A DNA stretch of 64,000 nt from Candidatus Peregrinibacteria bacterium. Lineage in GTDB: Bacteria; Patescibacteriota; Gracilibacteria; UBA1369; UM-FILTER-53-11. The notes under the pieces were generated by a model that saw only the letters and a list, made by a program, of their open reading frames with translations, was not told where the DNA came from and searched no databases. The number at the start of each line of letters is the position of its first letter. Within the stretch, counting starts at the first letter, position 1. Positions 18,565-44,691 of the stretch are shown piece by piece. The stretch spans positions 30,978 through 94,977 of the forward strand of contig JACPMA010000016.1 in NCBI GenBank assembly GCA_016186205.1. Direction: 5' to 3'. The position numbers and the translations under genes were made by a program.

Positions 18565-18646
18565 CGATGTTTATTATACCATAATTTGAACAACTTTTCA
18601 ATCTGGCCATGCGCGTGCGAAAAATCAGTATTGGTATACTAAAACT

Positions 18647-19135
18647 ATGAATCCATATAAAAAGGTTTTTTCCGAATTGCAAAAATCAGGAGTCAAATAT
18701 TTAGTGGTCGGCGGTGTTGCGGTGAATCTCTATGGTTATAGTCGTTTTACTGGAGATATTGATATTTTGCTCACACTTGATTCTTCGAATTTATCAAAAA
18801 TGGAAAAGGTAATGAAAAAATTGGGATATGTAGAACGTTTGCCGGTTCAACTGCATGAATTGAAAGATAAAAAAAAGGTAAAAAAATGGCTTAAGGAGAA
18901 GGGGATGACCGCATATACTTTTATTTCATCAAAAAAACCGCAGCTTGATATCGATATTTTGGTTGGATATTCGCTGGATTTTAAAAAGTTTTACAAAAAC
19001 AGAACTGTTATAAAAGTGTGGGGAATGAATCTGTCCGTAATTTCTTTTGATGATTTGATTTTGATGAAAAAGAAGGCTGGAAGAGAGAAGGATTTGCTCG
19101 ATCTTCAAGCTTTGCTAGAATTAAAGTCGCTATGA
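18647..19135 (+). CDS. Minimal nucleotidyltransferase-fold protein (MNT-like)
   Basis: 162 aa. N-terminal LVVGGVAVNLYGYSRFTGDIDILL matches the G[GS]-x(9-13)-DxD pattern of the nucleotidyltransferase fold. A TGGTATACT extended -10 lies 6 nt upstream of the ATG. Confidence 0.55.
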   Translation: MNPYKKVFSELQKSGVKYLVVGGVAVNLYGYSRFTGDIDILLTLDSSNLSKMEKVMKKLGYVERLPVQLHELKDKKKVKKWLKEKGMTAYTFISSKKPQLDIDILVGYSLDFKKFYKNRTVIKVWGMNLSVISFDDLILMKKKAGREKDLLDLQALLELKSL

Positions 19136-19266
19136 AGACGAAAATTCCGCAATTTGATAAAGATTATTTGCGGCGATGCAAACACAGTTCGCCAGAGACA
19201 AAATTGAAGTGGCTTGCGGCCGCGCTTGACTTTGCTCAAACAAAAAAGAAAACTGTGAAGAAGTGA
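19132..19266 (+). CDS. 44-aa ORF translationally coupled to the MNT-like gene
   Basis: Below the ORF-track size cut-off. Its ATG overlaps the upstream TGA (ATGA). Product: MKTKIPQFDKDYLRRCKHSSPETKLKWLAAALDFAQTKKKTVKK. Confidence 0.35.
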   Translation: MKTKIPQFDKDYLRRCKHSSPETKLKWLAAALDFAQTKKKTVKK

Positions 19267-19379
19267 AAGCGCGCCATTGATCGGAGATAACTATAGGGGA
19301 GATGAGAGCCAGTATGCCCAGAGTTACCAGAAGCGTGAAAATGTTTGAGCCTAAAGTTTCCGAAACAGCGACCTCGATT

Positions 19380-20771
19380 CTATCCCTCAAATGAACACCA
19401 TTCAATAAGTTTTTCAGGATTTTTTCTCCATTCGCCTTCCCATTTTTCCATGACCCAGCGCCCCGGAGATTTTTCATGCACAAAAACAAATTCTTTTATT
19501 GGCTTGAGGTAGATTGATTCATCTTCATTCTTCTCATTCAATATCTTAAAAGATTGAAGATTTGAAGTTGCAATTTCAAGAATTTGCTTACAATAATCCA
19601 GTAATTTTTTACCACGCAACGCAGCAAACATGCCGTTTTTAGCTATATCTTCTCCAATCATGCAGAAATCCATAAAACTCCAATCTTTGGTTAATTGCGT
19701 TATTAGCCGTTCACCGTCGGGATGGTAGACAAATGCTTTTACGACTGCTTGCAAAGAAGGAATGAGGAACGGCGGCAGACTGTCGCATACGCGCAGTTCC
19801 ATATACTGTTTTATTCTTATATCGGTATAAATAAAACTTACGTGGAGGATCCAGTCATCCAAAGTTGGACGAAATCCTCCGTATCCATTTTTCATAAATC
19901 CAGCGAACGTAGTATTTTTAATTGGTATCCATTTTTCATCACGGAATATCGTCACCATAGGAACTTTTTTACAAAAATCAATCCATTCCTTGAAACCGAA
20001 ATTTTTACTGAAGAAAATTTTTCGAATCCCAAACCGACGGCGATCCAGTTTTCTCAAAATATGAGTCCGATAACTCACGAACCCCGTATTCACCCCGTCT
20101 TTCAGCGGAGAATGGGCATACATGGCGCCTATAAAAGGCGCCAATCGAAGGAGAATATGGCATTTCCGCCTCGCGTCTTCTTCGGAGGTATAGTCAATAT
20201 TTGCTTGGATTGAACAGAGTTTATGCCAAGTTTCCGTCCATAGTTTTGATTTGCGTCTGAAAAAATCTTCCAAAATATTGAATCGATTGAGTGGAGTTCG
20301 TCTATGCTTTACCGGATCACTTTTGAATGGTTGATATCCCATGCCAAACCACACAACATCAAAAATTTGCGACATTTCCGAAAGTTCGTGCTGGTGAATT
20401 CTAAGCTCGCGCGCTAGATCGTGAATTGACGTATGGGTTCTGCCGGACAGTTCGCAAACGTCTTCGCAGTATTCAAGAGTCAAACGGCTTTCCCCCCGGC
20501 TCATTGATGTAATATAGGCACCTTCTTCGCGCTCCGCGACCCAATTAAGCTCCTCAATAAGTTTTTTTTGGATATTCTGAAAACCGTTGGGGTCAAGATA
20601 AGTAACAGGCTGAAGATTATTTCTGCGAATTCCGTGTTTTTCTACTTCCATTCCAATTTTCACTTCTTCCGGTTTTTTACATCCTGCTTTGTAGTATTCA
20701 AGCAGGTCATTTTCGGATATTGGTATTTTTGAAGCGAATTGTTGATATTGTGAATTTGGCTGATAGCCCAT
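19380..20771 (-). CDS. Glutamate--cysteine ligase family protein (GCS2 / plant-type-like)
   Basis: 463 aa. KIGMEVEKHGI (cf. GTEHEKFGF) and LTLEYCEDVCELSGRTHTSIHDL (cf. [21 protein letters not shown]), recalled from plant-type GCL. Not verified by search. Confidence 0.5.
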   Translation of the reverse strand: MGYQPNSQYQQFASKIPISENDLLEYYKAGCKKPEEVKIGMEVEKHGIRRNNLQPVTYLDPNGFQNIQKKLIEELNWVAEREEGAYITSMSRGESRLTLEYCEDVCELSGRTHTSIHDLARELRIHQHELSEMSQIFDVVWFGMGYQPFKSDPVKHRRTPLNRFNILEDFFRRKSKLWTETWHKLCSIQANIDYTSEEDARRKCHILLRLAPFIGAMYAHSPLKDGVNTGFVSYRTHILRKLDRRRFGIRKIFFSKNFGFKEWIDFCKKVPMVTIFRDEKWIPIKNTTFAGFMKNGYGGFRPTLDDWILHVSFIYTDIRIKQYMELRVCDSLPPFLIPSLQAVVKAFVYHPDGERLITQLTKDWSFMDFCMIGEDIAKNGMFAALRGKKLLDYCKQILEIATSNLQSFKILNEKNEDESIYLKPIKEFVFVHEKSPGRWVMEKWEGEWRKNPEKLIEWCSFEG

Positions 20772-20995
20772 ACGAAACGTACCTTAATAAAATAATGGGG
20801 AGGAGAAATCCTTAGGATGTTTTCTTGCGCCGACTTGATTAGAATTTAATTTTAGGTTTTTTTGGAAAAAAAACAATAGACTCAAAATAAATTGTATTTT
20901 TGTCTAATCTGCATTACAGAATAGTCAGAATTAATGATTAGTTTTTGGCAATATTCTTATGATTGCGAAAATTTGTGTATATATTATGATGCACC

Positions 20996-21394
20996 TCATC
21001 CGGATTGTTGTCGGCGCTTTTCAATACGGCGAAGCTCTTTGTCTGTGAATCCAAAATGATGACCGATCTCATGCCAAACAACATCACGCACAAGTTCTTT
21101 GAGCGAATAATCGTCTGTCGCGAGGCTTTCTATGGATTGTTTAAAGATAGTTATCTTGTCAGGTAAGACGCCGCTTTGAGTTTTCCCCCATTGCGTCTGC
21201 GGTACTCCTTCATAGAGGCCGAGCAGCACTCCACGATTCCCAATTGCAATTTCATTAGTGTGTTTTTTTCGCGGGGAATTTTCAATGACAATCGCCACAT
21301 TAGAAACGGCGTCGCGAAGTTTTTTAGGGAGTGATGAGAGCGCGGCAGCAACGAGTTTTTCAAATCGCAATGTATCCACTATGTCATTGTACAT
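20996..21394 (-). CDS. Small zinc metallopeptidase-family protein (Zincin_1/DUF1025-like)
   Basis: 132 aa with C-terminal VVWHEIGHHFGFTD (HExxH). Abuts the upstream tspO-like gene. Confidence 0.6.
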   Translation of the reverse strand: MYNDIVDTLRFEKLVAAALSSLPKKLRDAVSNVAIVIENSPRKKHTNEIAIGNRGVLLGLYEGVPQTQWGKTQSGVLPDKITIFKQSIESLATDDYSLKELVRDVVWHEIGHHFGFTDKELRRIEKRRQQSG

Positions 21395-21793
21395 TTATTT
21401 CCAATTTATAGCCGTAATGGTGAGCTGGAGTACTGTTGCAAAAGACACCCAGAAAAAATAGGGTACATTTATTAATGCTATCCATTTTCTGTGAGGATAC
21501 ATGACAAGCAGAGCCCATATGAGTGTTGCAAGAACTAAGATTATATCGACTGCGGCGAGAATATTATTTTGAAGGCCGAATTGAATTGGCGTAAAAGCGA
21601 AATTAAAAATAAGATTGAGAATAAACGGCAGGATGGTAGAAAATGGGATTTTACGTTTGAGGAAAAGGTATCCGGTAAACCCAAAAGAAACCGCAATAAT
21701 AAAATAAAGCACCGTCCATACGGGACCAAAGAGCCATGAAGGTGGTGCCCATGTAGGTTTTATTAACTGCTGATACCAATCGTAGGTGCTCAT
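21395..21793 (-). CDS. tspO: TspO/MBR family tryptophan-rich sensory protein
   Basis: 132 aa, 4-5 TM helices, N-terminal WYQQLIKPTWAPPSWLFGPVWTVLY signature. Confidence 0.75.
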   Translation of the reverse strand: MSTYDWYQQLIKPTWAPPSWLFGPVWTVLYFIIAVSFGFTGYLFLKRKIPFSTILPFILNLIFNFAFTPIQFGLQNNILAAVDIILVLATLIWALLVMYPHRKWIALINVPYFFWVSFATVLQLTITAINWK

Positions 21794-22024
21794 GATGGTA
21801 TTTTACACTAAAACAACGGCGCCAAAAGAGGCTGGCGCCTTGCCTACCGGCAGGCAGGCGCCACCATGGATTTGCAGAAGTTTTCAACTTGGCTCCCCCT
21901 AGCGGACGATTTGCGAACTAAGTGTTATGAAGCAATTCTGCTTTTAAGTAGGAATTTGAGGTGTAATCAAAATGCAATAGAGCCCGTTCTTTGATAAAGT
22001 AAGAAAGTTCAGTAATCTCTCAGT

Positions 22025-23026
22025 ATGCACTTAAAGGTTAATGAAGTTGTAGATATTAGCGGGTGGGAGTTTTTGGCTATTCCAATTGGTCTTGGAACAA
22101 GAGAAAAAATTGCAGTGCGAAAAACTCAAAAAGCAAAAGTATACTACATGGTAAAATCATATGATAAAGATGTAGGTGAATTGAGATCTGAAGTTTGCGC
22201 CTCGATCATAGGGAAACTTTTTGATTTTTCCGTTCAAAAATCTTTTTTATGTAAAATTCCTGATTATAAAAAACATGGATTTTCTCAGAATTTAGGTGTC
22301 TTAATACGCTTAGACATAACACGTCAACGAGATCCTCGAAATGAATCTTCACAATATAAGGAAGATCTTATTCATGGTGCCGACTTGATTAGTAGGGTAG
22401 CGCCTGATTTTCTTAAAATTCCAATAGGCGAGGAAGGCATGCGGAGGAAAATGTATACTTTGGAAGTGGTCATAAAAGCTCTTAGGGAATATGTTAGAAA
22501 AAATCCCCAAGCAGCGAAAACCATATGGATTGAGTTTTTTGAATTGACGGCTTTTGATGCTTTGATTGGAGGTACGGACAGACACTATCGTAATTGGGGG
22601 ATACTCCTTAATATAGAAAAAAATAAGAGATCATATCGAAAATTAGCACCAGCTTTTGATAATGGTATTAGTCTTCTTTGGAGAGATTCAGTTAGGTTAC
22701 GCAATCTTAATGAAAAATCGGTACGTGCTGCACCGTCGGCTTTTCGTAAGCCTCTAGGTGGACAGTATACGTTATTCGAGGTGTGCGAAATTCTTGGAAA
22801 AATTCCAGAGGTAAGAAAAAATGGTGCTGCAAAATTAGTTTTGGATAAATGTAATTCTGTGTCAGAAAATAAGCTTAAAGATGCAATTTTAAACAAAATG
22901 CCTCGCGATAAAAGTTTTGAATCAGATGAGAAAGTGCTAGCACAAATTTATGAATATGTTAAAATGAGGTTCCGAATATTGAAAGAAATTTTAAATAAAA
23001 TATATGCCCCCGCGGATATACTATAA
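22025..23026 (+). CDS. HipA-family serine/threonine kinase lacking N-subdomain 1 (HipT-like toxin)
   Basis: 333 aa. Catalytic loop GGTDRHYRNWGIL (DxHxxN) and Mg-binding LAPAFDNG, as in the HipA C-terminal kinase domain. Confidence 0.7.
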   Translation: MHLKVNEVVDISGWEFLAIPIGLGTREKIAVRKTQKAKVYYMVKSYDKDVGELRSEVCASIIGKLFDFSVQKSFLCKIPDYKKHGFSQNLGVLIRLDITRQRDPRNESSQYKEDLIHGADLISRVAPDFLKIPIGEEGMRRKMYTLEVVIKALREYVRKNPQAAKTIWIEFFELTAFDALIGGTDRHYRNWGILLNIEKNKRSYRKLAPAFDNGISLLWRDSVRLRNLNEKSVRAAPSAFRKPLGGQYTLFEVCEILGKIPEVRKNGAAKLVLDKCNSVSENKLKDAILNKMPRDKSFESDEKVLAQIYEYVKMRFRILKEILNKIYAPADIL

Positions 23027-23306
23027 TGTAGTTTACAAAAATGGCACCACAACACGTGTTGCCGAGTTTATTAAGGAAGAAAATGGGGAATTCATTTTTA
23101 GGTATTTCCCCGAAAGTAAAATTGAATTCCCAGGCTTTCCATTAAATAAAAATGAATATCGCAGTGCGGTATTATGGGAACCAATTATTTTTCGAATTCC
23201 AAATACATTACGTAATCAATATTCAGACCGTTCCCCTGAAGAGATTTTAGAAATCACTCAAGGTAAATTAGTGACTGATCATTTTGAGTTCGTTAAGCAA
23301 CCTTAG
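23004..23306 (+). CDS. HipS-like protein (resembles HipA N-terminal subdomain 1)
   Basis: 100 aa. Overlaps the kinase gene by 23 nt. The pattern NGTTTRVAEFIKEENGEFIFRYFPE...FPLNKNEYRSAVLWEPIIFRIPN...EILEITQGKLVTDHFEF parallels E. coli HipA residues about 1-100 (recalled, not aligned computationally). Confidence 0.4.
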   Translation: MPPRIYYNVVYKNGTTTRVAEFIKEENGEFIFRYFPESKIEFPGFPLNKNEYRSAVLWEPIIFRIPNTLRNQYSDRSPEEILEITQGKLVTDHFEFVKQP

Positions 23307-23307
23307 G

Positions 23308-25872
23308 CTAAGCTAAAATCTCATTCATATCATTTTCAACATTGGCTTCTTCTATAAATCGAAATTCAGCCATCTTAGGTGTTCGTGGGAAAAGCTGATT
23401 ATCCTTCCAGCTCTTTTGGATTGGCCTTTGATAGAGTCGCGTTAAATGCCGTTTGTAGTTTGTGTCAGCATTTCCAAGTAGGTGACCTCCTTTTGTTTCG
23501 ATGAGGCATATTTTGTCGAAAATTTCGCGCCCATTGCCTAGAGTGATAATAAAATCGGGGTAGAAGCGATTCTTTTTCCACGCTACGAGATAAAAGTCTT
23601 TTTTGGCTTTATTGCGATACCACCAGACAGTTTTTTTGCTGTCTTCCATACGCCATAACGCTTTATCTTCAAGATTATTTAGGTCTCCACCAATAACTGG
23701 ATCGTAGAGGCTTTTTTCGACCGATAGTTTTCTTCTAACTTCTTTTTCAAAGAAGTAATCCGCTTGAAGCACATCCAGGCCAAATTTGGGAACAAAACGA
23801 ATCTCATCACTAGCAAGTTTTTTCACAAATAATTCTCGGGCTAAGCGGTTAATTTCACCCTCTTCTTCACCGGTACCGCTTAAAATTTTACGAAGTTCAT
23901 CCAATAGAAAAATTTGATTTTTCTCAATCTCTTCATCTGAAAAATGCTTTTTTAATAAAACTAAAGCGTTTGAAATAATTTCTTCTGCCACCCAAGGATT
24001 AGGTACCTGCTCAAGGATATTTTGAACCCAAAAACTTTTTCTAATCTTTGTGTGAAATTTGCTCCTAGTGCGCTTTTCTTGCAGTTCAAGAAATTCTTCC
24101 ATATCTTCAGCGAACTCCCGTGTAAAGCCGATGGATACGGTTCTTTCTACAGCCTCACTTTCTGGATTTATGTGTACTTTTTTGAGGTTTTCCAATTTCA
24201 CTTTGCTGTAATCAATTTCTGCAAAAATATCCAAAGTTGGATCTAGCACGCGCGTGCCATCGGGTGAACGCTTATCTTGAACTACAAAAGTAGGAAGCGC
24301 AAAATCTTGCAAGCTTTTCTCAAAACGTTTACGCAAAGTTTGTTTTTTGCGTTCACCAAGTTCTGGATCGAATTTTCCTGAAGCAGAGGAGATACGCTGC
24401 ATAAGGTCTCCCATTCCGTCGTATTCAAACCCTGTCCTGATAGCTTTAATGAGTTCTTTAGATGAATCTCTTAGGCAAAACACATAGCTTTCGTCCAAAT
24501 CTTTAATCTTGGTCTTTCTAGCATACGGCTGACGTAGAACACGGCCTGTAAGCTGCGTTAAGGCTGTTTTAGAGCGAGAGCCACCTAAAACCGTCAAAGA
24601 GTAGGCAAAAGGACAGTCCCAGCCCTCCTGTAGGGCTTGTTTCGTAATTATGAATCGAATCGGGCAGGTGCTTGAAAGCAGGTCTTTGTTTTCAATGTCG
24701 TTTTTAATACTGCTCTTAATAGCTATTTCATCTTCGCGCACAAGTCCAGTGGCAATGAGATGCTCTTTAACATCGTCTGCATGAATTTTGCCTTCCTTGC
24801 GCTGATCCTTGCCCGTTGCTTCAACTTGAATTAAATTGATAGGCCGGATGTAAACGCCGGTATTTTTTTTGTATTTTTCCGCATGTAATTGAAGATTGTT
24901 TAAGTGCTCAATGGAATAATTAACAAGGCTTTTCCATTCAATCGTATCTTTTTCAATTAAATTTAGATCCAGTTTTATCATCTCTTCTTTTTCAAGTTCA
25001 CGGCCAGCAACAGAAAATAACACATTAGCCGTGTCTGTAGGAGTTGCTGTGAGCTCGCAAACGCAAGCGGGGTTACATTCTGTGATAGCACTGCTCGCAA
25101 GTTCGCTTTTTGCCTTATGCCCCTCATCCAAAATAATTAACGGCTCAAGTATTTTAACGACATTTCCAAATGAGGTTTTTACTTTGACCCCGAAGAGTGA
25201 GCCTTCTGTAGTTTCTTGATCGAGGTTTGGGAAGAACTCTAAAAGAGCTTTCTGTTTTTTCTGATCGCTCTCAAGAGGAAAGAACTCATCGAATTTTCCA
25301 TTGTCTTGAAAAAACTTTAGGTCGTCTTTTTTTATTTTATCTCTGGAAAATGATTGAAGAATCATTACGAGGACGACAAGATTTTCCTCGATATCGTTTG
25401 GAGTAAATTTTTCTTTTTTAGTCACAATCTTTACGCGATTGCCAGATATGGCATCTAACCGTTCGCGGTATGGATGTGCTCGATCTTTGAGCGCGGCAAG
25501 CGTTTGAGAGTAAATTTGTTCACTCGGTACAACCCAAAGAACAAAGCCTGTTTTCTTTTTACGAAGATGCTCTAAATAGAACTCTACCGCATAGGTTGCT
25601 AGGAGTGTTTTTCCTCCTCCTGTGGGTATTTTAAGGCAAAAGTTAGGGCATGGTTTGTTGTGTCCGGTGCGCTTATTTCTGCATGTATGATTTTCGTTGC
25701 CTTCGGTAAATAATCTATGCCATGCCTTTTCCGCTGGATTGATTTCATTACCCCATTTTTTTAGCACTTCTTTAGGGATTTTTTTAAAATCATTTTGTTC
25801 ATCGGCAAGCACTTGGAAATATCTATCCATCGCGTTCTTACAGTTGAGCTGATATTCCTTAAGCGTGTGCAT
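23308..25872 (-). CDS. res: Type III restriction endonuclease, Res subunit
   Basis: 854 aa. Helicase motif I PTGGGKT, motif II LDEGHKA, later QEGWDCP, and a C-terminal PD-(D/E)xK-like YPDFIITL...LIETKG. Sits immediately downstream of mod. Confidence 0.8.
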   Translation of the reverse strand: MHTLKEYQLNCKNAMDRYFQVLADEQNDFKKIPKEVLKKWGNEINPAEKAWHRLFTEGNENHTCRNKRTGHNKPCPNFCLKIPTGGGKTLLATYAVEFYLEHLRKKKTGFVLWVVPSEQIYSQTLAALKDRAHPYRERLDAISGNRVKIVTKKEKFTPNDIEENLVVLVMILQSFSRDKIKKDDLKFFQDNGKFDEFFPLESDQKKQKALLEFFPNLDQETTEGSLFGVKVKTSFGNVVKILEPLIILDEGHKAKSELASSAITECNPACVCELTATPTDTANVLFSVAGRELEKEEMIKLDLNLIEKDTIEWKSLVNYSIEHLNNLQLHAEKYKKNTGVYIRPINLIQVEATGKDQRKEGKIHADDVKEHLIATGLVREDEIAIKSSIKNDIENKDLLSSTCPIRFIITKQALQEGWDCPFAYSLTVLGGSRSKTALTQLTGRVLRQPYARKTKIKDLDESYVFCLRDSSKELIKAIRTGFEYDGMGDLMQRISSASGKFDPELGERKKQTLRKRFEKSLQDFALPTFVVQDKRSPDGTRVLDPTLDIFAEIDYSKVKLENLKKVHINPESEAVERTVSIGFTREFAEDMEEFLELQEKRTRSKFHTKIRKSFWVQNILEQVPNPWVAEEIISNALVLLKKHFSDEEIEKNQIFLLDELRKILSGTGEEEGEINRLARELFVKKLASDEIRFVPKFGLDVLQADYFFEKEVRRKLSVEKSLYDPVIGGDLNNLEDKALWRMEDSKKTVWWYRNKAKKDFYLVAWKKNRFYPDFIITLGNGREIFDKICLIETKGGHLLGNADTNYKRHLTRLYQRPIQKSWKDNQLFPRTPKMAEFRFIEEANVENDMNEILA

Positions 25873-25874
25873 AT

Positions 25875-27461
25875 TTATTCGGCCATTCGATAAATTTCAA
25901 ACGGGAGTTGAGCGAAACGGATGTTAAATTCCTTGAGATGGTAGTCTTCCATGAAGCAGGCAGGTGCAAAGACAAGTTTCTGACGAGCGGGGAACTGTTT
26001 ATGGATTCTTTCGGCAAAATCTAAATTGAGTGCCATTTCCTTTAATTTCTTTTTGTCTGGACTGTAAATAAGAAAAACTTCAAAAGTGCTTGATGAGCCT
26101 ATATGAAAAGTTTTTTCATTAAGTTTCTTGGCGTTAAATTTTTCACCAGTTGCAGTAAAGAATGCGTATTTTGACAAGTCTTCAAAGCTCGGGAGTTTTC
26201 TACATTCAAGAAGGTGCTCCATGTTTATTTCTTCTCCTAGTTCGTAAAACGAAAAGCTACCACCAAGGCCAGATTTTAGGGCTTCGTCTGCAGCATTTGG
26301 TATGCCTTTAATTACTCGTCTCATGCGTTCGGCAGTGATTTTGTCTGCATAATCTTCGCATTCAACTAGAATGAATTGACGATTGCCATCATCTTCTTTA
26401 TTTAGAGCTAAAACAGCGTGGCCTGTGGTTCCTGAGCCAGCAAAAGAGTCGAGGATCACGTCGTCTTTGGTCGAACTGATTGAAATTAAATGATAAATTA
26501 ATTCTATAGGTTTTGGATTATCAAATATCTCCGGCTCACCAAAAATTTCTGTTAGCATACTTTGTGCACTATCTGTACTGCCATGGTCGTCTAGTAGATT
26601 TGGCTGTGATGAATAGGTGTCCACGTCCTCGAAATCATATATTTTTAATTTTATGACATTGCCATCAATTATGAATCTTCCATTGGCTTCTAGTCCACGG
26701 GCTTTTTTCTCGCCAATTTGCCATCTTTTACCAGCTCTTGGTTTTTTTCCTAATATTTCAAATTGCATTGTTGCTCTGGCATAACTGCCGGCATTCTTTT
26801 TTTCAATAATTGTTAGTCTATAGTTTCCGAGCTTATCTTTGTGTGGATACTCTCTTGTCTCTTTTGATCTTATTCTTTGCAAAAGTTTTGCATTACCTGA
26901 CTTGCCATATACAAGTGTGTAATCCACCAAAGAGCTAACCGATGCCTCTTTCACATTTGTAGATGTTGCCTTTTTTTTCCAAAGAAAATCAGCAATAAAA
27001 TTATCTTCGCCAAAAATTTCGTCCAGCATTGATCGAAGGTGATGAAATTCATTATCATCGATGCTTATGAAAATAATCCCGTCATCTTTTAGAAGTTCAC
27101 GTAAAAGAGTAAGTCGTGGATACATCATGCAAGCCCATTTGTCGTGTCGCGTAAGATCGTCCCGTGCAACGACTTTTCCGAGCCATTCACGAATCATCGG
27201 GGAAGCCACATTGTCATTGTAGATCCAGTTTTCATTGCCAGTGTTGTACGGAGGATCAATATAAATACACTTAATTTTGCCTGCATGAGTTGGAAGTAGG
27301 GCTTTGAGTGCTTTTAAGTTATCTCCATGAATAATGAGATTGTCGTCTAGAGAGGGAGATTTACTAAGCCCCTTAGTCTTTTGAGTGACCAGATTGTGAA
27401 ATTTAACTGCGTGATGGTAGTTTTGGAGGAATGTTTTTCCCTTGAAGTGAAAAGAAGGCAT
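25875..27461 (-). CDS. mod: Type III DNA methyltransferase, Mod subunit (beta-class N6A/N4C)
   Basis: Motif IV IYIDPPYNTG precedes motif I ILDSFAGSGTTGHA, with a variable region between them. This is the typical Mod order. Confidence 0.85.
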   Translation of the reverse strand: MPSFHFKGKTFLQNYHHAVKFHNLVTQKTKGLSKSPSLDDNLIIHGDNLKALKALLPTHAGKIKCIYIDPPYNTGNENWIYNDNVASPMIREWLGKVVARDDLTRHDKWACMMYPRLTLLRELLKDDGIIFISIDDNEFHHLRSMLDEIFGEDNFIADFLWKKKATSTNVKEASVSSLVDYTLVYGKSGNAKLLQRIRSKETREYPHKDKLGNYRLTIIEKKNAGSYARATMQFEILGKKPRAGKRWQIGEKKARGLEANGRFIIDGNVIKLKIYDFEDVDTYSSQPNLLDDHGSTDSAQSMLTEIFGEPEIFDNPKPIELIYHLISISSTKDDVILDSFAGSGTTGHAVLALNKEDDGNRQFILVECEDYADKITAERMRRVIKGIPNAADEALKSGLGGSFSFYELGEEINMEHLLECRKLPSFEDLSKYAFFTATGEKFNAKKLNEKTFHIGSSSTFEVFLIYSPDKKKLKEMALNLDFAERIHKQFPARQKLVFAPACFMEDYHLKEFNIRFAQLPFEIYRMAE

Positions 27462-27487
27462 ATCGGCTCATTACATCTTTGAACCGA

Positions 27488-27648
27488 GTTCCTTTCGTAT
27501 ACCGCAAGAGAAGGGAACCCAGCTGCCGACTCACATTCAGTTACCAACAAAGGCACCCGATAGCGAGTTGCTGGGTCCCCCTCCTTACCCGTTATCGGGA
27601 GGAAGGGATTTCCCCAGCCTTTGTAAGTAATACGAATTGTGAGTCGGC
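27488..27648. other. GC-rich, highly structured non-coding element inside the island (function unknown)
   Basis: Hairpin 27488-27496/27510-27518. Nested helices follow: GCCGACTCACA(27525-35)/TGTGAGTCGGC(27638-48), ACAAAGGC(27547-54)/GCCTTTGT(27617-24), CCCGATAGC(27556-64)/GTTATCGGG(27591-99). The only ORF here (27479..27745) looks spurious. Confidence 0.5.
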
Positions 27649-27744
27649 ATCGAAAATTCTACCACGCACAACAAATAGAAGCCAAAACCGAATTCATTTT
27701 TATCTCAAAAAACGCTATTATTGGCTTTGTTTAATGAAAAAGTA

Positions 27745-28938
27745 ATGACCGAATTTAATATTAGAAAAATAGATAGTAAATTGCTCTTTCTGGTGAAGTC
27801 CTTAATAGGTGATTATAAAGAATCACAAGAGAAAGACAGCTCTACTCATCGCGGGGAAAAGTTTTTCAGTTTTATCGGTTTTGGCCATACCGACTCTTTA
27901 TGGAAGAAGATGCCCGATGAGGAATGGAGTGCGTATCTCACTAGTTTGTGTGTGGAGTATGGAATAATTAGAGAAATATATTTTGATATTCTTGATGAAG
28001 AGCGGGATACAGAAAACCCGATTAAATCAAAACATTATAAGTATGCTGGATCGGCTGAGTTTGAAGATTTTTTTAATTTTGGCATTTCAGCAGGCCGTGA
28101 CAATACAATATTTTGTTCAATAGATTTGAATTGCGAAAAAGCAAAGAGTTTTTTTGATGAATATTTGTTGAATTGGCTTAACGATAATTTGTTTAAGGAA
28201 AAGAAGAATCTGTTAAAAGCGGAAAAACAAATTGAGAAAATAATTGAAGATATTTATGCGCTTTTAGATCAGCATCCCGATAGAAATTTATTGGTACAGG
28301 AAAATATACTTCACAAAGAAGATATAGATTTTATTGCCGTCATGTACTTTTTAGAAAAAATGAAATACTTAGAAATATTAAATGTCGACGCTGGACAGTT
28401 TGAATATTGGATCATGCGTGTAAATATAAGTAAAAAATTCTATGAAGATTTTGAACGAGAAGGATGGATATTGAGCAATATAAAGTTTGATTTTAACTAT
28501 CTAAAAACAGGTAAAAAAACAACAATGAACAAAAAGGAAGATTTAGGAGAAATTATACAACAAAATAAAAAAGTACAGTCTCGTAAAACAGGTATAGAAA
28601 ATGAAATTGGTTTTTATAAGAACATTTGTACGGATTTTAAAGAAGGGAAGATTTGGATTGCTGGTAAAAGTAAGAAATCAAAAATGGCCGATTCTAAAAT
28701 GAGAAAACTATGGAAACTGCTTTTATTAAATGTAGGCGATGTATTCTCCTACGACAGAATCGCAACTGGATTGAATCTTACCAAGCAAATGGGACTTAAT
28801 CGTCTATCTTGTATTGAAAATTTGGCTCAAACAAAGAAAAATCTTATAGAGAGAATAGCGAAACTAGGTATTGATAGAAGCGTAGTGTCAGATTGGTTTA
28901 TTGATAACAATGGTTATGGATTGAAGAAAGAGGGGTAA
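27745..28938 (+). CDS. Hypothetical protein with a C-terminal OmpR/CadC-like winged-helix DNA-binding region
   Basis: First ATG in frame is at 27745 (the track start 27721 is TTG). The C-terminal segment KMRKLWKLLLLNVGDVFSYDRIATGL...NLIERIAKLGIDRSVV...NNGYGL resembles a Trans_reg_C winged helix. Confidence 0.5.
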   Translation: MTEFNIRKIDSKLLFLVKSLIGDYKESQEKDSSTHRGEKFFSFIGFGHTDSLWKKMPDEEWSAYLTSLCVEYGIIREIYFDILDEERDTENPIKSKHYKYAGSAEFEDFFNFGISAGRDNTIFCSIDLNCEKAKSFFDEYLLNWLNDNLFKEKKNLLKAEKQIEKIIEDIYALLDQHPDRNLLVQENILHKEDIDFIAVMYFLEKMKYLEILNVDAGQFEYWIMRVNISKKFYEDFEREGWILSNIKFDFNYLKTGKKTTMNKKEDLGEIIQQNKKVQSRKTGIENEIGFYKNICTDFKEGKIWIAGKSKKSKMADSKMRKLWKLLLLNVGDVFSYDRIATGLNLTKQMGLNRLSCIENLAQTKKNLIERIAKLGIDRSVVSDWFIDNNGYGLKKEG

Positions 28939-28989
28939 CAAGAAGATAACCAGAACTTAACCGTTGCAATTAGTTAGACTGACTTTGTC

Positions 28990-29008
28990 AGCCGTTCAGC
29001 GGCTTTTT
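28990..29008 (+). terminator. Rho-independent terminator-like hairpin
   Basis: AGCCG-ttcag-CGGCT followed by TTTTT, about 50 nt after the stop of the 27745..28938 gene. The stem is only 5 bp. Confidence 0.4.
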
Positions 29009-29158
29009 GACGTATCTAAATTATGGAAAGCCCCTACGAAAAATTAGTTGGTCGCAAACTTAAGCAGGAAGAGATTAAAAAAATGAGTTCTGATCTCGTG
29101 GGTTATTTCCAACTTTTAATCGCAGTCGACAGACAAACAACTGCCGACCTACTTAATT

Positions 29159-29473
29159 ATGAAAAAGAACGAAATCGTAATAACTGAAATTCAGATTGTG
29201 CCGATAAAGCCACAGGACGGGCTCATCGGTTTTGCAAGTTTCGTCCTGAATGGGTGCTTGTACCTAGGGTCGATCGGCATCCACACACGATTGGATGGAA
29301 GTGGGTTCCGTCTAACGTATCCCACAAAGGGTGCAATAAATATATTTCATCCAATCAACAAAGAAGTTTCCAAAGCAATTGAGGAAGCTGTTTTTGCTAA
29401 AGCTGAAGAAGTAATGAATTTTAACGATACACGTAATGATCGACACCGTGAGGCTGACTTTATTCAAAGATAA
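29159..29473 (+). CDS. SpoVG-like nucleic-acid-binding protein
   Basis: 104 aa. ITEIQIVPIKPQDGLIGFASFVLNGCLYLGSIGIHTRLDGSGFRLTYPTK...IFHPINKEVSKAIEEAV parallels the SpoVG core (recalled B. subtilis SpoVG). Confidence 0.6.
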   Translation: MKKNEIVITEIQIVPIKPQDGLIGFASFVLNGCLYLGSIGIHTRLDGSGFRLTYPTKGAINIFHPINKEVSKAIEEAVFAKAEEVMNFNDTRNDRHREADFIQR

Positions 29474-30578
29474 GTTCCGCATCTTCAAACCAGAGCTTTT
29501 TCATCCCCATGCTCACATTTTAGATGATCACATTCCTTATGGAGTACCCAAAGTCGATTGTTATCAAAATTCATCAAAAGCAGTCATCGCAAAAGGACTC
29601 TGCATGATAAAGCTCAGTGCAGTTAAACGCTTTGTTAAGGGTGGAGTTCAAACGACATTAACCGTGGAATTTTCGGCCCCGAAGCTAGTTTACGGAAACA
29701 ACCTTGATGAGCTTGAGCAAGGAGATTTTATTACAGTGCTAAAGATATTATGTAATCGCTTATCAAATGAAATGGGTGTTGTTGTAAGTGAAGAAGATCT
29801 GAAAGCAGCAACAGTCAGTGCAATACATTTTTCAAAAAACATTTCTTTTGTCGATTACACAACAGTAAATAGCATAATAAATTATACAAGGAAGATCAAT
29901 TTAACGAAAAGATTCGATCTAAATGAAACGAAGTTTCGCAATGAAGGATTAACTATTTATCATCACTCAAAATCTCTTCAATTTATTCTATACGATAAAA
30001 TCCGTGAGATGCAGAAGGTTAACGGAAGGGGAATCGAAGAAAATGTGCAATTGCATCTCGATATACTCGGTGAAGTAGAGAGTGCACACAAAGAACCTCT
30101 CGAAGTTTTACGGTCGGAACTTAGGATTTTGAAAAGACCCAAATTGAGGTCAATGTTGAAAAAAATTGGTGAACCCTACATAGAAACCTTCGAGGAATTT
30201 TTCAGTAAACGGCTTTCTCAAAAAATGCTTCAGCAATATTGGAATTTTATTATTGAAAAATTAAAACCGGTTATTTTTGCGGAAGATTTTACTCCACAAG
30301 AAGTTGTGAAATTAATATTACAGCAAAATCGACGAATCAAGCCTCAAGCTGCGTTGAGCTTGATCGGGATTTTTTACGCCATAAAGCACATAGGAATACG
30401 GCCGCTAAAAACAATGTTAAATACCTACTTTAATGCACGATCATGCAGCAGATTATTAAGCCAAATCAACGACTTTGAATTTCCTCAAAGCAGTCGATTT
30501 GAGCCATTTAACCATATTAGTAAGGCACTTTCAGAGTTTAAACCACTCAAAATGAAAGATTTGACCTTACCATTCTAA
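29436..30578 (+). CDS. Putative replication initiation protein (phage/plasmid gene II / Rep-like)
   Basis: 380 aa. The N-terminus MIDTVRLTLF resembles the MIDxLxL start of filamentous-phage/plasmid rolling-circle initiators. It sits between the SpoVG-like and recombinase genes. Weak assignment. Confidence 0.35.
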   Translation: MIDTVRLTLFKDKFRIFKPELFHPHAHILDDHIPYGVPKVDCYQNSSKAVIAKGLCMIKLSAVKRFVKGGVQTTLTVEFSAPKLVYGNNLDELEQGDFITVLKILCNRLSNEMGVVVSEEDLKAATVSAIHFSKNISFVDYTTVNSIINYTRKINLTKRFDLNETKFRNEGLTIYHHSKSLQFILYDKIREMQKVNGRGIEENVQLHLDILGEVESAHKEPLEVLRSELRILKRPKLRSMLKKIGEPYIETFEEFFSKRLSQKMLQQYWNFIIEKLKPVIFAEDFTPQEVVKLILQQNRRIKPQAALSLIGIFYAIKHIGIRPLKTMLNTYFNARSCSRLLSQINDFEFPQSSRFEPFNHISKALSEFKPLKMKDLTLPF

Positions 30579-30608
30579 CTTTATTATTATAATCTAACAT
30601 CATAATTT

Positions 30609-32147
30609 ATGAATGAAATTATTGAAAAAATATTGGAAAAATTAGCACTCGGATTAGCCCGAGTTTCAACCGAAGAGCAGGAAGATGGGCATACGATTCC
30701 CGCTCAAGTTCAGCGAATAAATGATTATGCAGCACAGAAAGGCCTAACCCTTGAAAAAGTTTTTGAGCTAACGGAATCGTCCACAAAAGCAGACAGGAAA
30801 AAATTCTGCGAGCTCTTTGAAATCATTAAACGCAGTAAAATTCCTGTAATTTTAATTGTTGAAACGGTGGACAGGCTGCAGCGTAGTTTTAGAGAATCCG
30901 TTGAGCTCGATGCTTTAAGAAAAGATGGAAAACTCGAAATCCACTTTTTACGAGAAAATCTTGTTATCAACAAGGATTCCAACAGCGTAGATATTATGCG
31001 CTGGGATCTCGCTGTTTTTGTCGCAAAGACTTACGTATTGCAGTTAAGCGACAATGTAAAACGCAGCTTGGAACAAAAGCTCCGCAACGGTGAATGGATT
31101 GGAAGAGCCCGCGTCGGATATTTGAACATTGATCTTCCGAACGAAAAGAAATCAGTAGTTCTTGATCCAGACAGGGCTCCACTCATAAAAAAAGCATTTG
31201 AATGGTATTCAACAGGGAATTATTCGACGAGCCAAATAACAACAATGCTTAAAGAGGCTGGACTCACCAATAATACGCCTAAGAAAGCCATCCTCAATAA
31301 AAGCACCGTAGCGGAAATGCTACAGGAACCTTTTTACTACGGTGAAATGAGGGTGAAGGGTAAACACTATCCTCATAATTATGAGCCTATTGTGGCACGT
31401 TGGTTATTCGACAAATGTCAGCAAGTACGTGAGGGCTGGCATAAAAAGCCTTTTAAGACTGGAGAAACTTTTTATGCCTTTAGAGGCCTAATTAAACACG
31501 ACTGCGGATGTTTACTCACTCCGTACACGAAAAAGGGAATTGTATATTTGAAGTGCTCGAAGTATCGCGGTAACTGCCAAGGGGTTAGTGTGAATGAAAA
31601 AGATTTGATTAAAGAACTTGCCGAGATTTTTCGTGTTATGCGTCCTCCAGATGATGTGGTGGAGGACGTTAAACAGCAATTACGCAGCAGCCATGAAAAT
31701 GAACAACGATTTTATGAGTCGAACATTCAACGTATCAACAAAGGACTTGCTACGATCAAACAGCGTTTCCAGCCCGCCTATGAGGACATGCTGGATGGCC
31801 GTATTACGAGGGACGAACACGACAAATTGGTGCAGAAATGGAAGCAGCAGGAAAGAGACCTCTTACTTCAACTTGAGGATCATTCAAAAGGGGATGAGCA
31901 GTTTTACATCACGGCTTCTTACCTGTTAGATATTTCAAAACGAGCACAGGAACTTTTCCTGCGTTCGCAACCGGAGCAAAAACGACAATTTTTGAATTTC
32001 GTACTTGCGAACTTAAGTTTGGAGGGCAAAAAGCTCGGCTACAAGCTGAAAGAACCATTTGCGGCTATGCACGAAATGGGTATTCGTATGAATTGGCTCC
32101 GGAGGTCGGACTCGAACCGACAACCCACTGGTTACACGAATCCTTAA
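30609..32147 (+). CDS. Large serine recombinase (integrase)
   Basis: 512 aa. Resolvase catalytic domain with LARVSTEEQ (catalytic Ser), recombinase domain, Cys-rich zinc-ribbon-like segment (CGCLLTPY...LKCSKYRGNC) and a coiled-coil tail. The last 54 nt overlap the tRNA-Asn 3' exon on the opposite strand. Confidence 0.85.
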   Translation: MNEIIEKILEKLALGLARVSTEEQEDGHTIPAQVQRINDYAAQKGLTLEKVFELTESSTKADRKKFCELFEIIKRSKIPVILIVETVDRLQRSFRESVELDALRKDGKLEIHFLRENLVINKDSNSVDIMRWDLAVFVAKTYVLQLSDNVKRSLEQKLRNGEWIGRARVGYLNIDLPNEKKSVVLDPDRAPLIKKAFEWYSTGNYSTSQITTMLKEAGLTNNTPKKAILNKSTVAEMLQEPFYYGEMRVKGKHYPHNYEPIVARWLFDKCQQVREGWHKKPFKTGETFYAFRGLIKHDCGCLLTPYTKKGIVYLKCSKYRGNCQGVSVNEKDLIKELAEIFRVMRPPDDVVEDVKQQLRSSHENEQRFYESNIQRINKGLATIKQRFQPAYEDMLDGRITRDEHDKLVQKWKQQERDLLLQLEDHSKGDEQFYITASYLLDISKRAQELFLRSQPEQKRQFLNFVLANLSLEGKKLGYKLKEPFAAMHEMGIRMNWLRRSDSNRQPTGYTNP

Positions 32148-32407
32148 ATTTCTTTAAGGGGTGGACTATATCTTTATCCGCAAAAGTGTGCACGTGCACA
32201 CTTTTGTGAGGACATCTTGGTATCTAGTCTCTACGGCGCCCCCTCACATTTTGCGATCCCGCAAAAGGCGAAGGGTTCCCACGGTATTACCCGGTCTGTA
32301 CGTACAGACTTTGGGCTTCACCGTTATCCCAAGAAGTTTCAACCTAAGTTGCCTTAGGAAGCTGCGTAATTTCACAGCCAGTTGCTCTACCATTGAGCTA
32401 CTCCGGA
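32094..32407 (-). tRNA. tRNA-Asn(GUU), split by a group I intron (exons 32374-32407 and 32094-32134)
   Basis: The joined exons give a 75-nt cloverleaf: UCCGGAG UA GCUC AAUGGUA GAGC A ACUGG CUGUUAA CCAGU GGGUU GUCGG UUCGAGU CCGAC CUCCGGA G CCA. U1-A72 and G73 match E. coli tRNA-Asn. Confidence 0.85.
32135..32373 (-). ncRNA. Group I intron (239 nt, no ORF)
   Basis: P1: exon GGCUGU pairs with intron GCAGCU, with a U.G wobble at the 5' splice site. P2 is CCUAAG-GCAA-CUUAGG. P3 is CUUGG/CCAAG. P4 is ACGGU/ACCGU. P6 is UUUUGCG-GGAU-CGCAAAA. Core GUAGAGACUAGA with P7 GACUA/UAGUC. P8 is a 13-bp hairpin. P9 is CCUUAAA-GAAA-UUUAAGG. The terminal nucleotide is G. Confidence 0.8.
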
Positions 32408-32464
32408 ATGATACGCACAAGAGGATGAAATCCTATTTGTGCGCTTTTACAATTAAGCGCGGCC

Positions 32465-33706
32465 TTATGGCCGCACCACCTTTACGAATCGTACAATCTC
32501 TCTTCCTACCACTGAATCTGGGCGTTCATATAAAAGAGAGGTCGTTTTTAAAGGAGCAAAAGTGGTTTTACTATAACCAAGACTTTCAATTTTCGCAACG
32601 ACATGCGAGGCGAGACTTTGTCGAGATGAGCCTTTTTTCCAATAAGGGAAAATAAAAACAACGGCTGTTTTTTTCGGCAGCCATTGCGCGAGGTTTTTGA
32701 AAAAATCCAAATATAATTTTTCAAGCTCGTCCATTAATTTTTTAAGAAAATTTTCCGCTGGGAATTGCGAAAGTGGGGGACCGAGAAACGGCTCGGTGAC
32801 CACGGCGAGCGAAAGCGAGCCGTTTTGCTGCTTGCCCCCCACGGGCGCTTTCGCAATAGCATCTGCGGCCGTAAGCGACCTTGCATCTTTTTGAAAAAGT
32901 TTTACATGCGTGTTCCCGGGCACACTTTTCGAAAACGTTTTTTGCAGCCAGTCAATGTTTTGGCGCGCGCCTTCAATGAGCCGCGCATCTTTATCGCTTC
33001 CAATTACTGAATATCCCATGAGCATGGCTTCCATTAAAATCGTGCCTGTGCCGCAAAATGGGTCGAGAATAGTAGCAGCCGAAGCAATCTCATTAGGGTT
33101 TGCGAGGTTTATCATAATTTGCGCTAATTTTGGCGGAAGCATGCCGACCGCAGGATCTCGAAACGGTTTTCCATAATCACGTTTTGAATAAGCCTCAAAA
33201 TCCTGCAGGGCGACCGTAGCGCCGAGCGTAACTTTTCCATCGCCCACATCGAGAATTCCGATATTTGTTTTGCTACCGATGAGCCCTTGTTTTGATGCAA
33301 ACACCGGACTGACATTTTGAAAATTCTTATTCATGAAATTTGCGCTGACGCCTTTCGCACGCAGATTTTTTTTCAGTCGCGTAAGCAAAAATTTCAACAC
33401 TTGTGATTTTTTATTTTCCGGCCAGAGATTGAGCGCAAACGCGCATTTTCCAGTATGCGCGCGAGATTGTTCCAGCAAAAATTTTTCAACATCATTAAGA
33501 ATATCCGCTTGAGGCAAATTTTCCGCAAAAATTTCCAGAATTTCCGTAGTGCCGCCGAGGCGATTCAAAAAATCCTGCGGTTTTTGCGGAAGTTCGCCGT
33601 CGAAAAAAATAGCATAATTTTTGCAAGAGCGAAGGCTTTGAAAAATCGCTCCAAGTTCAGCAATAGAAAGCTCCTGATTTCGCCCTAAGATAAACGCATA
33701 TTTCAT
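32465..33706 (-). CDS. Putative RNA methyltransferase (UPF0020/Trm11-like SAM-dependent MTase)
   Basis: Start moved to ATG 33706 (MKYAFILG...). SAM motif I DPFCGTGTILMEA, DKD acidic loop, and a motif IV-like VVTEPFLG. Lies 58 nt upstream of tRNA-Asn on the same strand. Confidence 0.6.
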   Translation of the reverse strand: MKYAFILGRNQELSIAELGAIFQSLRSCKNYAIFFDGELPQKPQDFLNRLGGTTEILEIFAENLPQADILNDVEKFLLEQSRAHTGKCAFALNLWPENKKSQVLKFLLTRLKKNLRAKGVSANFMNKNFQNVSPVFASKQGLIGSKTNIGILDVGDGKVTLGATVALQDFEAYSKRDYGKPFRDPAVGMLPPKLAQIMINLANPNEIASAATILDPFCGTGTILMEAMLMGYSVIGSDKDARLIEGARQNIDWLQKTFSKSVPGNTHVKLFQKDARSLTAADAIAKAPVGGKQQNGSLSLAVVTEPFLGPPLSQFPAENFLKKLMDELEKLYLDFFKNLAQWLPKKTAVVFIFPYWKKGSSRQSLASHVVAKIESLGYSKTTFAPLKTTSLLYERPDSVVGREIVRFVKVVRP

Positions 33707-33842
33707 ATCAAGTGCCAAAATGACATAAAGGCCAGTCCGGCACAAATCGAAAAACAAAAATTACCCTTCCGCGAATCTTTGATTCTATATATAAATAAAG
33801 CAATTGATAATTCATCATTCGTAATTTATTAATTCGTTCTAT

Positions 33843-34325
33843 ATGGCATTCTCTCTTAATCGCGCTCAACTCATCGGCAATGTGACTCGCGCTCCGGAAG
33901 TGCGTCTTGCCGGCGGCCAGAAAGTCGCCACCTTCGGCGTGGCCACAAATTTTTCATGGAAAGATCAAACCGGCCAGCGCAAGGATAGGGCTGAATTCCA
34001 TAATATTGTGGCGTGGCGAAAACTCGCGGAAATTTGCGAACAATATCTGCATAAGGGAAGCAAAGTATATATAGAGGGACGGATTCAGACGCGCGATTGG
34101 GAAGGGGAGGACGGCGTGAAGCGATATCGGACGGAAATTGTGTTGGACAATATGATTATGTTGGATAAAAAAGGAGATGCCGTTTCTGCGCCTATTTCAA
34201 ATGATGATGAACCGGCGGATCAGCCAGCAGATCGGCCGCAACGTAATATAAAGGTGGAGAAAAAGACCGCTAAAGAAGAGCAGCCACAGGAAGAAGAGGT
34301 TTCTATAGATGATTTGCCTTTTTAG
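33843..34325 (+). CDS. ssb: Single-stranded DNA-binding protein
   Basis: OB-fold N-terminus (NRAQLIGNVTRAPEVR...FHNIVAWRKLAE), acidic tail ending DDLPF. Confidence 0.9.
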   Translation: MAFSLNRAQLIGNVTRAPEVRLAGGQKVATFGVATNFSWKDQTGQRKDRAEFHNIVAWRKLAEICEQYLHKGSKVYIEGRIQTRDWEGEDGVKRYRTEIVLDNMIMLDKKGDAVSAPISNDDEPADQPADRPQRNIKVEKKTAKEEQPQEEEVSIDDLPF

Positions 34326-44617: not shown

Positions 44618-44691
44618 TGGTTGGGGAGGAAGGATTCGAACCTTCGGTGGTGCCTCCAGAGGGCACTGCCTTACCGCTTGGCTACTCCCCA
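44618..44691 (-). tRNA. tRNA-Gln(CUG)
   Basis: UGGGGAG UA GCCA AGCGGUAA GGCA G UGCCC/GUGCC stem, loop CUCUGGA (anticodon CUG), T arm GAAGG UUCGAAU CCUUC, acceptor CUCCCCA A CCA. The D arm is identical in style to E. coli tRNA-Gln. Confidence 0.9.

Follow-up and report, generated by a model that had tools for sequence, protein, structure and literature searches.

A 64-kb stretch of DNA from Candidatus Peregrinibacteria (Candidate Phyla Radiation, CPR/Patescibacteria), referred to here in its whole length as the window, carries on its minus strand two tRNA halves separated by 239 nucleotides (nt). This locus raises the question of which tRNA is interrupted, by what kind of element, and whether the gene still serves the cell. 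The gene is very probably a tRNA-Asn(GUU) split between anticodon nucleotides U35 and U36 by a group I ribozyme of IC3-like type that holds no open reading frame (ORF). Its parts are:

32374-32407, minus strand: 5' exon of tRNA-Asn, positions 1-35, ending ...CUGU, 34 nt; its final 6 nt are the exon side of helix P1
32135-32373, minus strand: group I intron, 239 nt, ORF-less (Rfam RF00028, mapped helices, covariation and minimum free energy, MFE)
32135, minus strand: omega-G, with which the intron ends at the 3' splice site
32094-32134, minus strand: 3' exon of tRNA-Asn, U36 to G73 plus an encoded CCA (32096-32094), 41 nt

The interrupted gene was called in the 64-kb window neither by ARAGORN without introns nor by the Rfam tRNA model, and a tRNA-Gln at 44618-44691 was the sole other tRNA called there. 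When the exons were joined in silico, ARAGORN returned a 75-nt tRNA-Asn(gtt) with a perfect 7-bp acceptor stem, a U1-A72 pair, discriminator G73 and the anticodon loop CUGUUAA. An earlier note on this DNA had proposed these exon and intron boundaries, the lengths of 34, 41, 75 and 239 nt, and the same terminal pair, discriminator and loop, all of which were confirmed by the joined tRNA.

A search with the Rfam covariance model Intron_gpI (RF00028), set as a check beforehand, gave a significant match at 32142-32384 of the minus strand that spanned the whole model (1-253); it scored 55.5 bits (E=2e-11), where the gathering score is 50 bits. It was the only RNA-family match in a permissive rescan of 27-33 kb. 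A thermodynamic fold alone recovered P1, P4-P6, P7, P8 and P9 at -96.8 kcal/mol (z = -5.6 vs shuffles).

Homologues were sought in one genome per species with the core pattern CCGTAGAGACTAGATACC, followed by 20-50 nt and then AAGATATAGTCCA, a scan that gave at least 120 loci. An alignment of 52 homologues was scored against the structure of the window intron. In this alignment 82% of the cells were paired. Column-shuffled controls gave 69.5%, with none of 500 shuffles reaching the level of the alignment, and slid registers gave 37-45%; doubly changed cells numbered 534 where 207 were expected. Compensatory covariation was strong in P2, P3, P4/P5, P6a and P9, reaching nearly every pair of P2 and P9, and the base of P8 covaried as well. 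The P1 wobble and its three adjoining pairs were kept in all 52 homologues, and the introns ended in GUG or AUG before the 3' exon wherever the end was held in the alignment. The helices of the window intron are:

32360-32379, minus strand: P1 hairpin, in which exon GGCUGU and intron G1 (32379-32373) pair with guide CGCAGCU (32366-32360), with the U35.G9 wobble at the 5' splice site
32343-32358, minus strand: P2 hairpin CCUAAG/CUUAGG with a GCAA (GNRA) loop; 94.9% paired, compensatory changes at 6 of 6 pairs
32163-32334, minus strand: catalytic core, P3-P8
32334-32329 with 32220-32215, minus strand: P3, UCUUGG/CCAAGA; 100% paired, 4 of 6 pairs covary
within 32163-32334, minus strand: P4, ACGGUG/UACCGU, and P5, GCCC/GGGU, with the P5a hairpin; P4/P5 89.5% paired
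within 32163-32334, minus strand: P6, P6a and P6b; P6a covaries
32231-32225 with 32168-32163, minus strand: P7, consisting of G32231, bulged A32230 and GACUA (32229-32225), paired with UAGUCC
32212-32177, minus strand: P8 with a long palindromic extension
32142-32159, minus strand: P9 hairpin CCUUAAA/UUUAAGG with a GAAA loop; 89% paired, 6 of 7 pairs covary

The model match and the covariation bear out the full set of group I hallmarks that the earlier note had listed. The pairing of exon GGCUGU with guide GCAGCU was found, with its U.G wobble at the splice site; P2 and P9 are capped by the GNRA loops GCAA and GAAA; P3, P4, P6, P7 and P8 could all be placed, together with P5 and P9; and the intron ends in G, at 32135. 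The likeness of the core to the Azoarcus and cyanobacterial introns, which the note had pointed out, was also found, as the string GUAGAGACUAGA occurs in both the Azoarcus (Aol6.Ile2.5Ug) and the cyanobacterial (Ncf2.Leu.3Ug) seeds of the published alignment discussed below. Chance is excluded as the origin of these intron-like features. A protein-spliced bulge-helix-bulge tRNA intron was considered separately and was ruled out by the 239-nt length, by the 35/36 site (bulge-helix-bulge introns are short and usually lie at 37/38) and by the full group I core.

Several points weigh against this picture. The window intron could form a weak 3-bp P10 (UAA with UUA), but P10 is not conserved across the family (27% paired in the alignment). 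P7 and the flanking core are invariant and give no covariation information, because both were part of the search pattern. The compact P1-P9 fold, P2 with GCAA and P9 with GAAA agree with the IC3 subgroup, which is marked by a P2 without P2.1 or P5abc and by GNRA tetraloops on P2 and P9 that can dock on P8 and P5, but J3/4-P4 is unlike that of the classical IC3 seeds, and the suggested IC3 placement is one of architecture alone. Finally, the view is limited to 64 kb, and a second, intron-less tRNA-Asn is possible elsewhere in the genome.

Splice register and identity of the tRNA

The splice sites can be drawn in a second register. If the intron is placed two nt further 5' (CU/gu...cg/UGUAA), the product becomes a tRNA-Thr(UGU), and in both registers the 5' site is preceded by U and the 3' site by G. 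With introns allowed, ARAGORN makes precisely this call for the window gene, tRNA-Thr(tgt) i(33,239), and among the matches listed it does so for 19 of the 30 genes of the Asn class. A published intron also bears such a name, Pgr210.Thr.2Ug, in the seed alignment of Williams 2020 (bioRxiv 10.1101/2020.01.27.920355).

The pairing in P1 opposes the Thr register, since U33 pairs with an A while the U.G wobble stands at U35 in 52 of 52 sequences. The acceptor end also separates the two identities. A U1-A72 pair and G73 are features of bacterial tRNA-Asn, as in E. coli tRNA-Asn. All 30 Asn-class genes among the matches listed have U1 and G73 wherever the acceptor stem is readable, whereas the genuine CPR tRNA-Thr genes at the same loci (n=47) have G1 in 46 cases and U as discriminator. 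Homologues whose introns end in AUG (e.g. L048, L065 and L118) fit the Asn register only, and the metagenome-assembled genome (MAG) of L015 has a separate intron-less tRNA-Thr(UGU) on L063. Because of the wobble at U35, the U1/G73 end as opposed to G1/U73 in tRNA-Thr, and the AUG-ending introns, a tRNA-Thr(UGU) with an intron at loop position 2 was rejected and is hardly credible for this gene; the wobble is absent at that position and the acceptor end is not of Thr type. The ARAGORN call of tRNA-Thr(UGU) is a 2-nt register artefact. The insertion point between anticodon positions 35 and 36, as given in the earlier note, is upheld by the P1 wobble at U35 and by the tRNA-Asn identity features.

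In the seed alignment, the Pgr210.Thr.2Ug intron has its U.G wobble after cugU, 2 nt 3' of the site implied by its name. This offset suggests that the entry may be an Asn.4Ug intron in the wrong register, and the published 'Thr.2Ug' class, as represented by that seed, may as a whole be Asn.4Ug read in the other register, which we offer as a lead.

Relatives of the intron and published classes

The loci of this intron subfamily, drawn from species-representative genomes, lie nearly all in Patescibacteria/CPR MAGs. Among the matches listed are Saccharibacteria, Parcubacteria/Paceibacterota, Peregrinibacteria, Gracilibacteria, Daviesbacteria and others, along with a few MAGs labelled Bdellovibrionales or Gammaproteobacteria. 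The host tRNA could be reconstructed in 88 of the matches listed, and the intron followed CUGU in every one. The hosts among these were tRNA-Asp(GUC) in at least 47, tRNA-Asn(GUU) in at least 30 and tRNA-Tyr(GUA) in at least 11. One of the 30 Asn loci is a contig identical to the window, so that at least 29 further species genomes share the arrangement; the uncalled loci among the matches listed have mostly Asp-type or Asn-type 3' exons and include about nine more Asn. No tRNA-His host was found among the matches listed; a His call made by ARAGORN at L029 was rejected on its Asp-type 3' exon. Many CPR tRNA-Asp genes with an intron of this subfamily have an unusual T arm, GGGGTCAGCACCC, and are missed by ARAGORN even with introns allowed (L007, L011, L019, L024, L028, L036, L070, L084, L094, L109, L124 and others).

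Introns of the subfamily range from 185 to 274 nt, and their guide core GCAG, which matches CUGU, is invariant. The closest intron among the matches listed is that of L015, from another Peregrinibacteria MAG, with 63% identity overall and 79% over the core columns. In 69 of the 88 introns the nearest neighbour had the same host tRNA, compared with 36 expected and a shuffle maximum of 54, which indicates that inheritance has for the most part followed the host tRNA, apart from some exceptions. On these sequence comparisons the subfamily appears to be mostly vertically inherited together with its host tRNA. A BLASTN search of phage records with the locus gave no match, and the core pattern was present in only 2 viral contigs.

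The earlier note had implied that a tRNA-Asn host was new. This did not hold, as an Asn.4Ug class at the same site is present in the seed alignment of Williams 2020 (bioRxiv 10.1101/2020.01.27.920355), from which the class name is taken here, and at least 29 further genomes carry the arrangement. That preprint extends the bacterial tRNA/intron classes from the four classical ones to 21 and reports a high frequency of these introns in metagenomic assemblies of unnamed phyla; its seed alignment holds Pam37.Asn.4Ug, Mba143.Tyr.4Ug, Wba81.Asp.4Ug and Pgr210.Thr.2Ug. The window intron adds neither a new tRNA host nor a new insertion site. In full-text literature searches, no paper devoted to tRNA group I introns of CPR came up; the results were limited to the 2020 preprint and a brief remark in PMC8172020.

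The window gene has the features of the Asn.4Ug class, with a spliced product that ARAGORN calls tRNA-Asn and the arrangement CUGU/g...g/UAA. It resembles the seed Pam37.Asn.4Ug in isotype, in the site after the fourth loop nucleotide (CUGU/UAA) and in U(-1)/omega-G, but as aligned that seed differs in having extra helices, namely an insertion after GACUA and a longer P1-P2 region, and in its J3/4-P4 sequence. The closest seeds in the published alignment are instead Pgr210.Thr.2Ug and Mba143.Tyr.4Ug, with 0.72 and 0.66 of the length matched, compared with 0.54-0.58 of the window intron length for the Azoarcus and cyanobacterial IC3 introns. The Tyr.4Ug, Asp.4Ug and 'Thr.2Ug' introns in the alignment share with the window intron the core strings GGGAUAACGGUGAA, CCGUAGAGACUAGAUACC and AAGAUAUAGUCCA, the guide GCAG and the GNRA loops on P2 and P9, and these introns of uncultured bacteria are equivalent to the CPR-wide subfamily recovered here. 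The Tyr.4Ug and Asp.4Ug introns reside in tRNA-Tyr or tRNA-Asp. Compared with this group, P1 of the window intron is longer, with 6 exon pairs, and its P5a and P8 carry long palindromic extensions.

The IC3 introns of Azoarcus tRNA-Ile(CAU) and cyanobacterial tRNA-Leu(UAA) are likewise small, ORF-less and located in the anticodon loop, with a P1-P9 fold, no P5abc, the string GUAGAGACUAGA and tetraloops on P2 and P9. They differ in host tRNA and loop position (5Ug and 3Ug), and their J3/4-P4 reads GAUAACGGUGAA, compared with CAAAUUCGGCGAAA in the window intron. Their self-splicing has been shown experimentally, whereas the window intron is known from its sequence alone. Taken with the classes catalogued in the seed alignment of the 2020 preprint, the window intron is a solid but ordinary example of a class that is common in CPR.

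The serine recombinase and the flanking region

The genes next to the tRNA, and recombinase ORFs homologous to the one in the window, are:

30609-32147, plus strand: large serine recombinase ORF, 512 amino acids (aa), with Pfam Resolvase and Recombinase domains and a PHROG integrase match at aa 13-475
32465-33757, minus strand: methyltransferase gene (Pfam), directly upstream of the tRNA; conserved neighbour
33843-34325: SSB; conserved neighbour
L015:3574-4845, L069:7405-7998, L157:3921-4898, L173:495-902 and L205:7555-7962: homologous recombinase ORFs

The window and L015 have SSB, methyltransferase, intron-bearing tRNA-Asn and serine recombinase in the same order, and L058 matches the window in the order intron-bearing tRNA-Asn, methyltransferase, SSB. 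This shared gene order indicates that the interrupted gene predates the divergence of these lineages. The GroEL encoded in the window has 100% identity to an NCBI protein of Candidatus Peregrinibacteria, on which the assignment of the organism was based, and the contigs identical to the window stem from a single series of Logan-assembled runs.

The last 17 codons of the recombinase read antisense across the tRNA 3' exon and 13 nt at the 3' end of the intron (tail ...WLRRSDSNRQPTGYTNP, then stop). Homologous recombinase ORFs that end in a tRNA-antisense tail of this kind (...LR..DSN..P.G/RY) adjoin tRNA-Asn genes with an intron in L015 and L069, and intron-less tRNA-Asn genes in L157, L173 and L205; in L090 a homologue with a different C-terminal tail overlaps tRNA-Asn. 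Since the pairing recurs with and without the intron, the recombinase associates with tRNA-Asn independently of the intron. From this recurrence, tRNA-Asn may be an attachment site that this recombinase family uses repeatedly, in CPR as well as in other uncultured bacteria.

The proposal in the earlier note that the tRNA is the integration site of a mobile element stood in part. The overlap of the recombinase with the 3' exon and the recurrence of the pairing agree with it. No second copy of the tRNA 3' end was found in the window (22-mer and 18-mer searches, up to 3 mismatches) and no direct repeats were found across 10-36 kb, so no att repeat was identified. An empty site was not recovered among island-free or intron-free contigs sought by means of the neighbouring proteins, as all of the contigs found were identical to the window.

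A bolder version is that the 3' exon, and possibly the 3' end of the intron, was supplied by the serine-recombinase element at integration, which would make the gene a host/element hybrid across an att junction. The recombinase ORF does stay in frame through the whole 3' exon, the five loci named above have homologous ORFs with the same antisense tail at tRNA-Asn, and the flank is low in G+C. The missing displaced fragment, direct repeat and empty site speak against such a hybrid, the recombinase domain stops at about aa 475, and the open frame may have been passed on merely as part of the conserved tRNA sequence that it crosses. We regard this origin as tentative and rather unlikely; it would in any case be compatible with a group I intron in tRNA-Asn.

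The flank has further features. A low-G+C stretch from 18000 to 32100 (0.34-0.41, vs about 0.45-0.49) contains genes for an AbiEii-like nucleotidyltransferase, a GCS2 ligase, a HipA-like kinase, a type III restriction-modification pair (23308-27461) and a Phage_CRI-like replication protein. Logan contig L126, from another sample, ends at about 21.9 kb, possibly at a variable boundary. The intergenic segment 27465-27700, which separates the type III methylase gene from an ORF at 27721-28938, folds into a long imperfect hairpin of about 130 nt (MFE z = -5.1 on the minus and -6.4 on the plus strand; no Rfam match), which might be the origin or end of a small element at 27.5-32.1 kb. That candidate element would contain the Phage_CRI-like replication protein, a SpoVG-like protein and the serine recombinase.

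Logan contig L001, 17.5 kb long and identical to the window, breaks off within the 5' exon of the tRNA, at 32375. A branch in the de Bruijn graph, such as a co-occurring tRNA-Asn with the same 31-mer (32374-32404) would create, is consistent with this end. A 164-aa ORF at 32161-32655 on the plus strand, a gene call in the Logan annotation of L002, is antisense to the intron and the 5' exon; it overlaps the methyltransferase gene, has no Pfam match and is probably a spurious call.

Functional state and meaning of the locus

Group I introns are removed by an established two-step pathway, and the sequence requirements for it are present in the window gene, from which the chemistry itself is inferred. 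In the folded precursor, P1 would form from the intron guide GCAGCU and the exon end GGCUGU, and an exogenous guanosine bound in P7 would attack after the wobble-paired U35. The terminal omega-G (32135) would then take the place of this guanosine in the G site, and the freed 3'-OH of U35 would attack after omega-G, which would ligate the exons into the loop CUGUUAA and release the intron.

The locus could instead be a decaying or silent copy, with an intron that has stopped splicing or a gene that has fallen out of use, while another intact tRNA-Asn serves the cell. Such a gene might lie beyond the 64 kb of the genome that is visible, a mobile element adjoins the tRNA-Asn gene, and near-identical intron-less tRNA-Asn genes exist in metagenomes; that of L132, for example, has two mismatches to the window tRNA-Asn, both in the acceptor stem and compensatory to each other. 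These near-identical genes share no synteny with the window. In the window gene, all helices and family-invariant core positions are intact and the acceptor stem is perfect. The same interrupted gene occurs in the same synteny in diverged relatives, with compensatory changes that point to purifying selection on the fold, and no intron-less tRNA-Asn or tRNA-Asp was found in 120 genome loci of 8 kb each. According to the remark in PMC8172020, CPR genomes are complete in tRNAs only if intron-bearing tRNAs are counted. A silent copy is very unlikely in our view. The window intron is probably functional, and the locus is probably the working, and probably the only, tRNA-Asn gene of the cell.

On a wider scale, the subfamily may spread, or have spread, among the G34-U35 tRNAs (Asp, Asn and Tyr) by GCAG-guided reverse splicing at CUGU. 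Ribozyme folding would then gate three essential tRNAs, because tRNA-Asn (and probably tRNA-Asp and tRNA-Tyr) is single-copy in these tiny genomes, and, independently of this, serine-recombinase elements would use the 3' half of tRNA-Asn as attB, their reading frame being completed on the antisense strand. We put this combined scenario forward as speculation that is unlikely to hold in full.

The main value of the locus is practical, as standard tRNA finders miss the gene and ARAGORN with introns allowed mislabels it as tRNA-Thr. A MAG with such a gene would consequently seem to be without tRNA-Asn, or to have a spurious extra tRNA-Thr. The window intron also provides a clean, short and ORF-less example of a large and little-studied CPR intron family, and is a candidate for a self-splicing assay.

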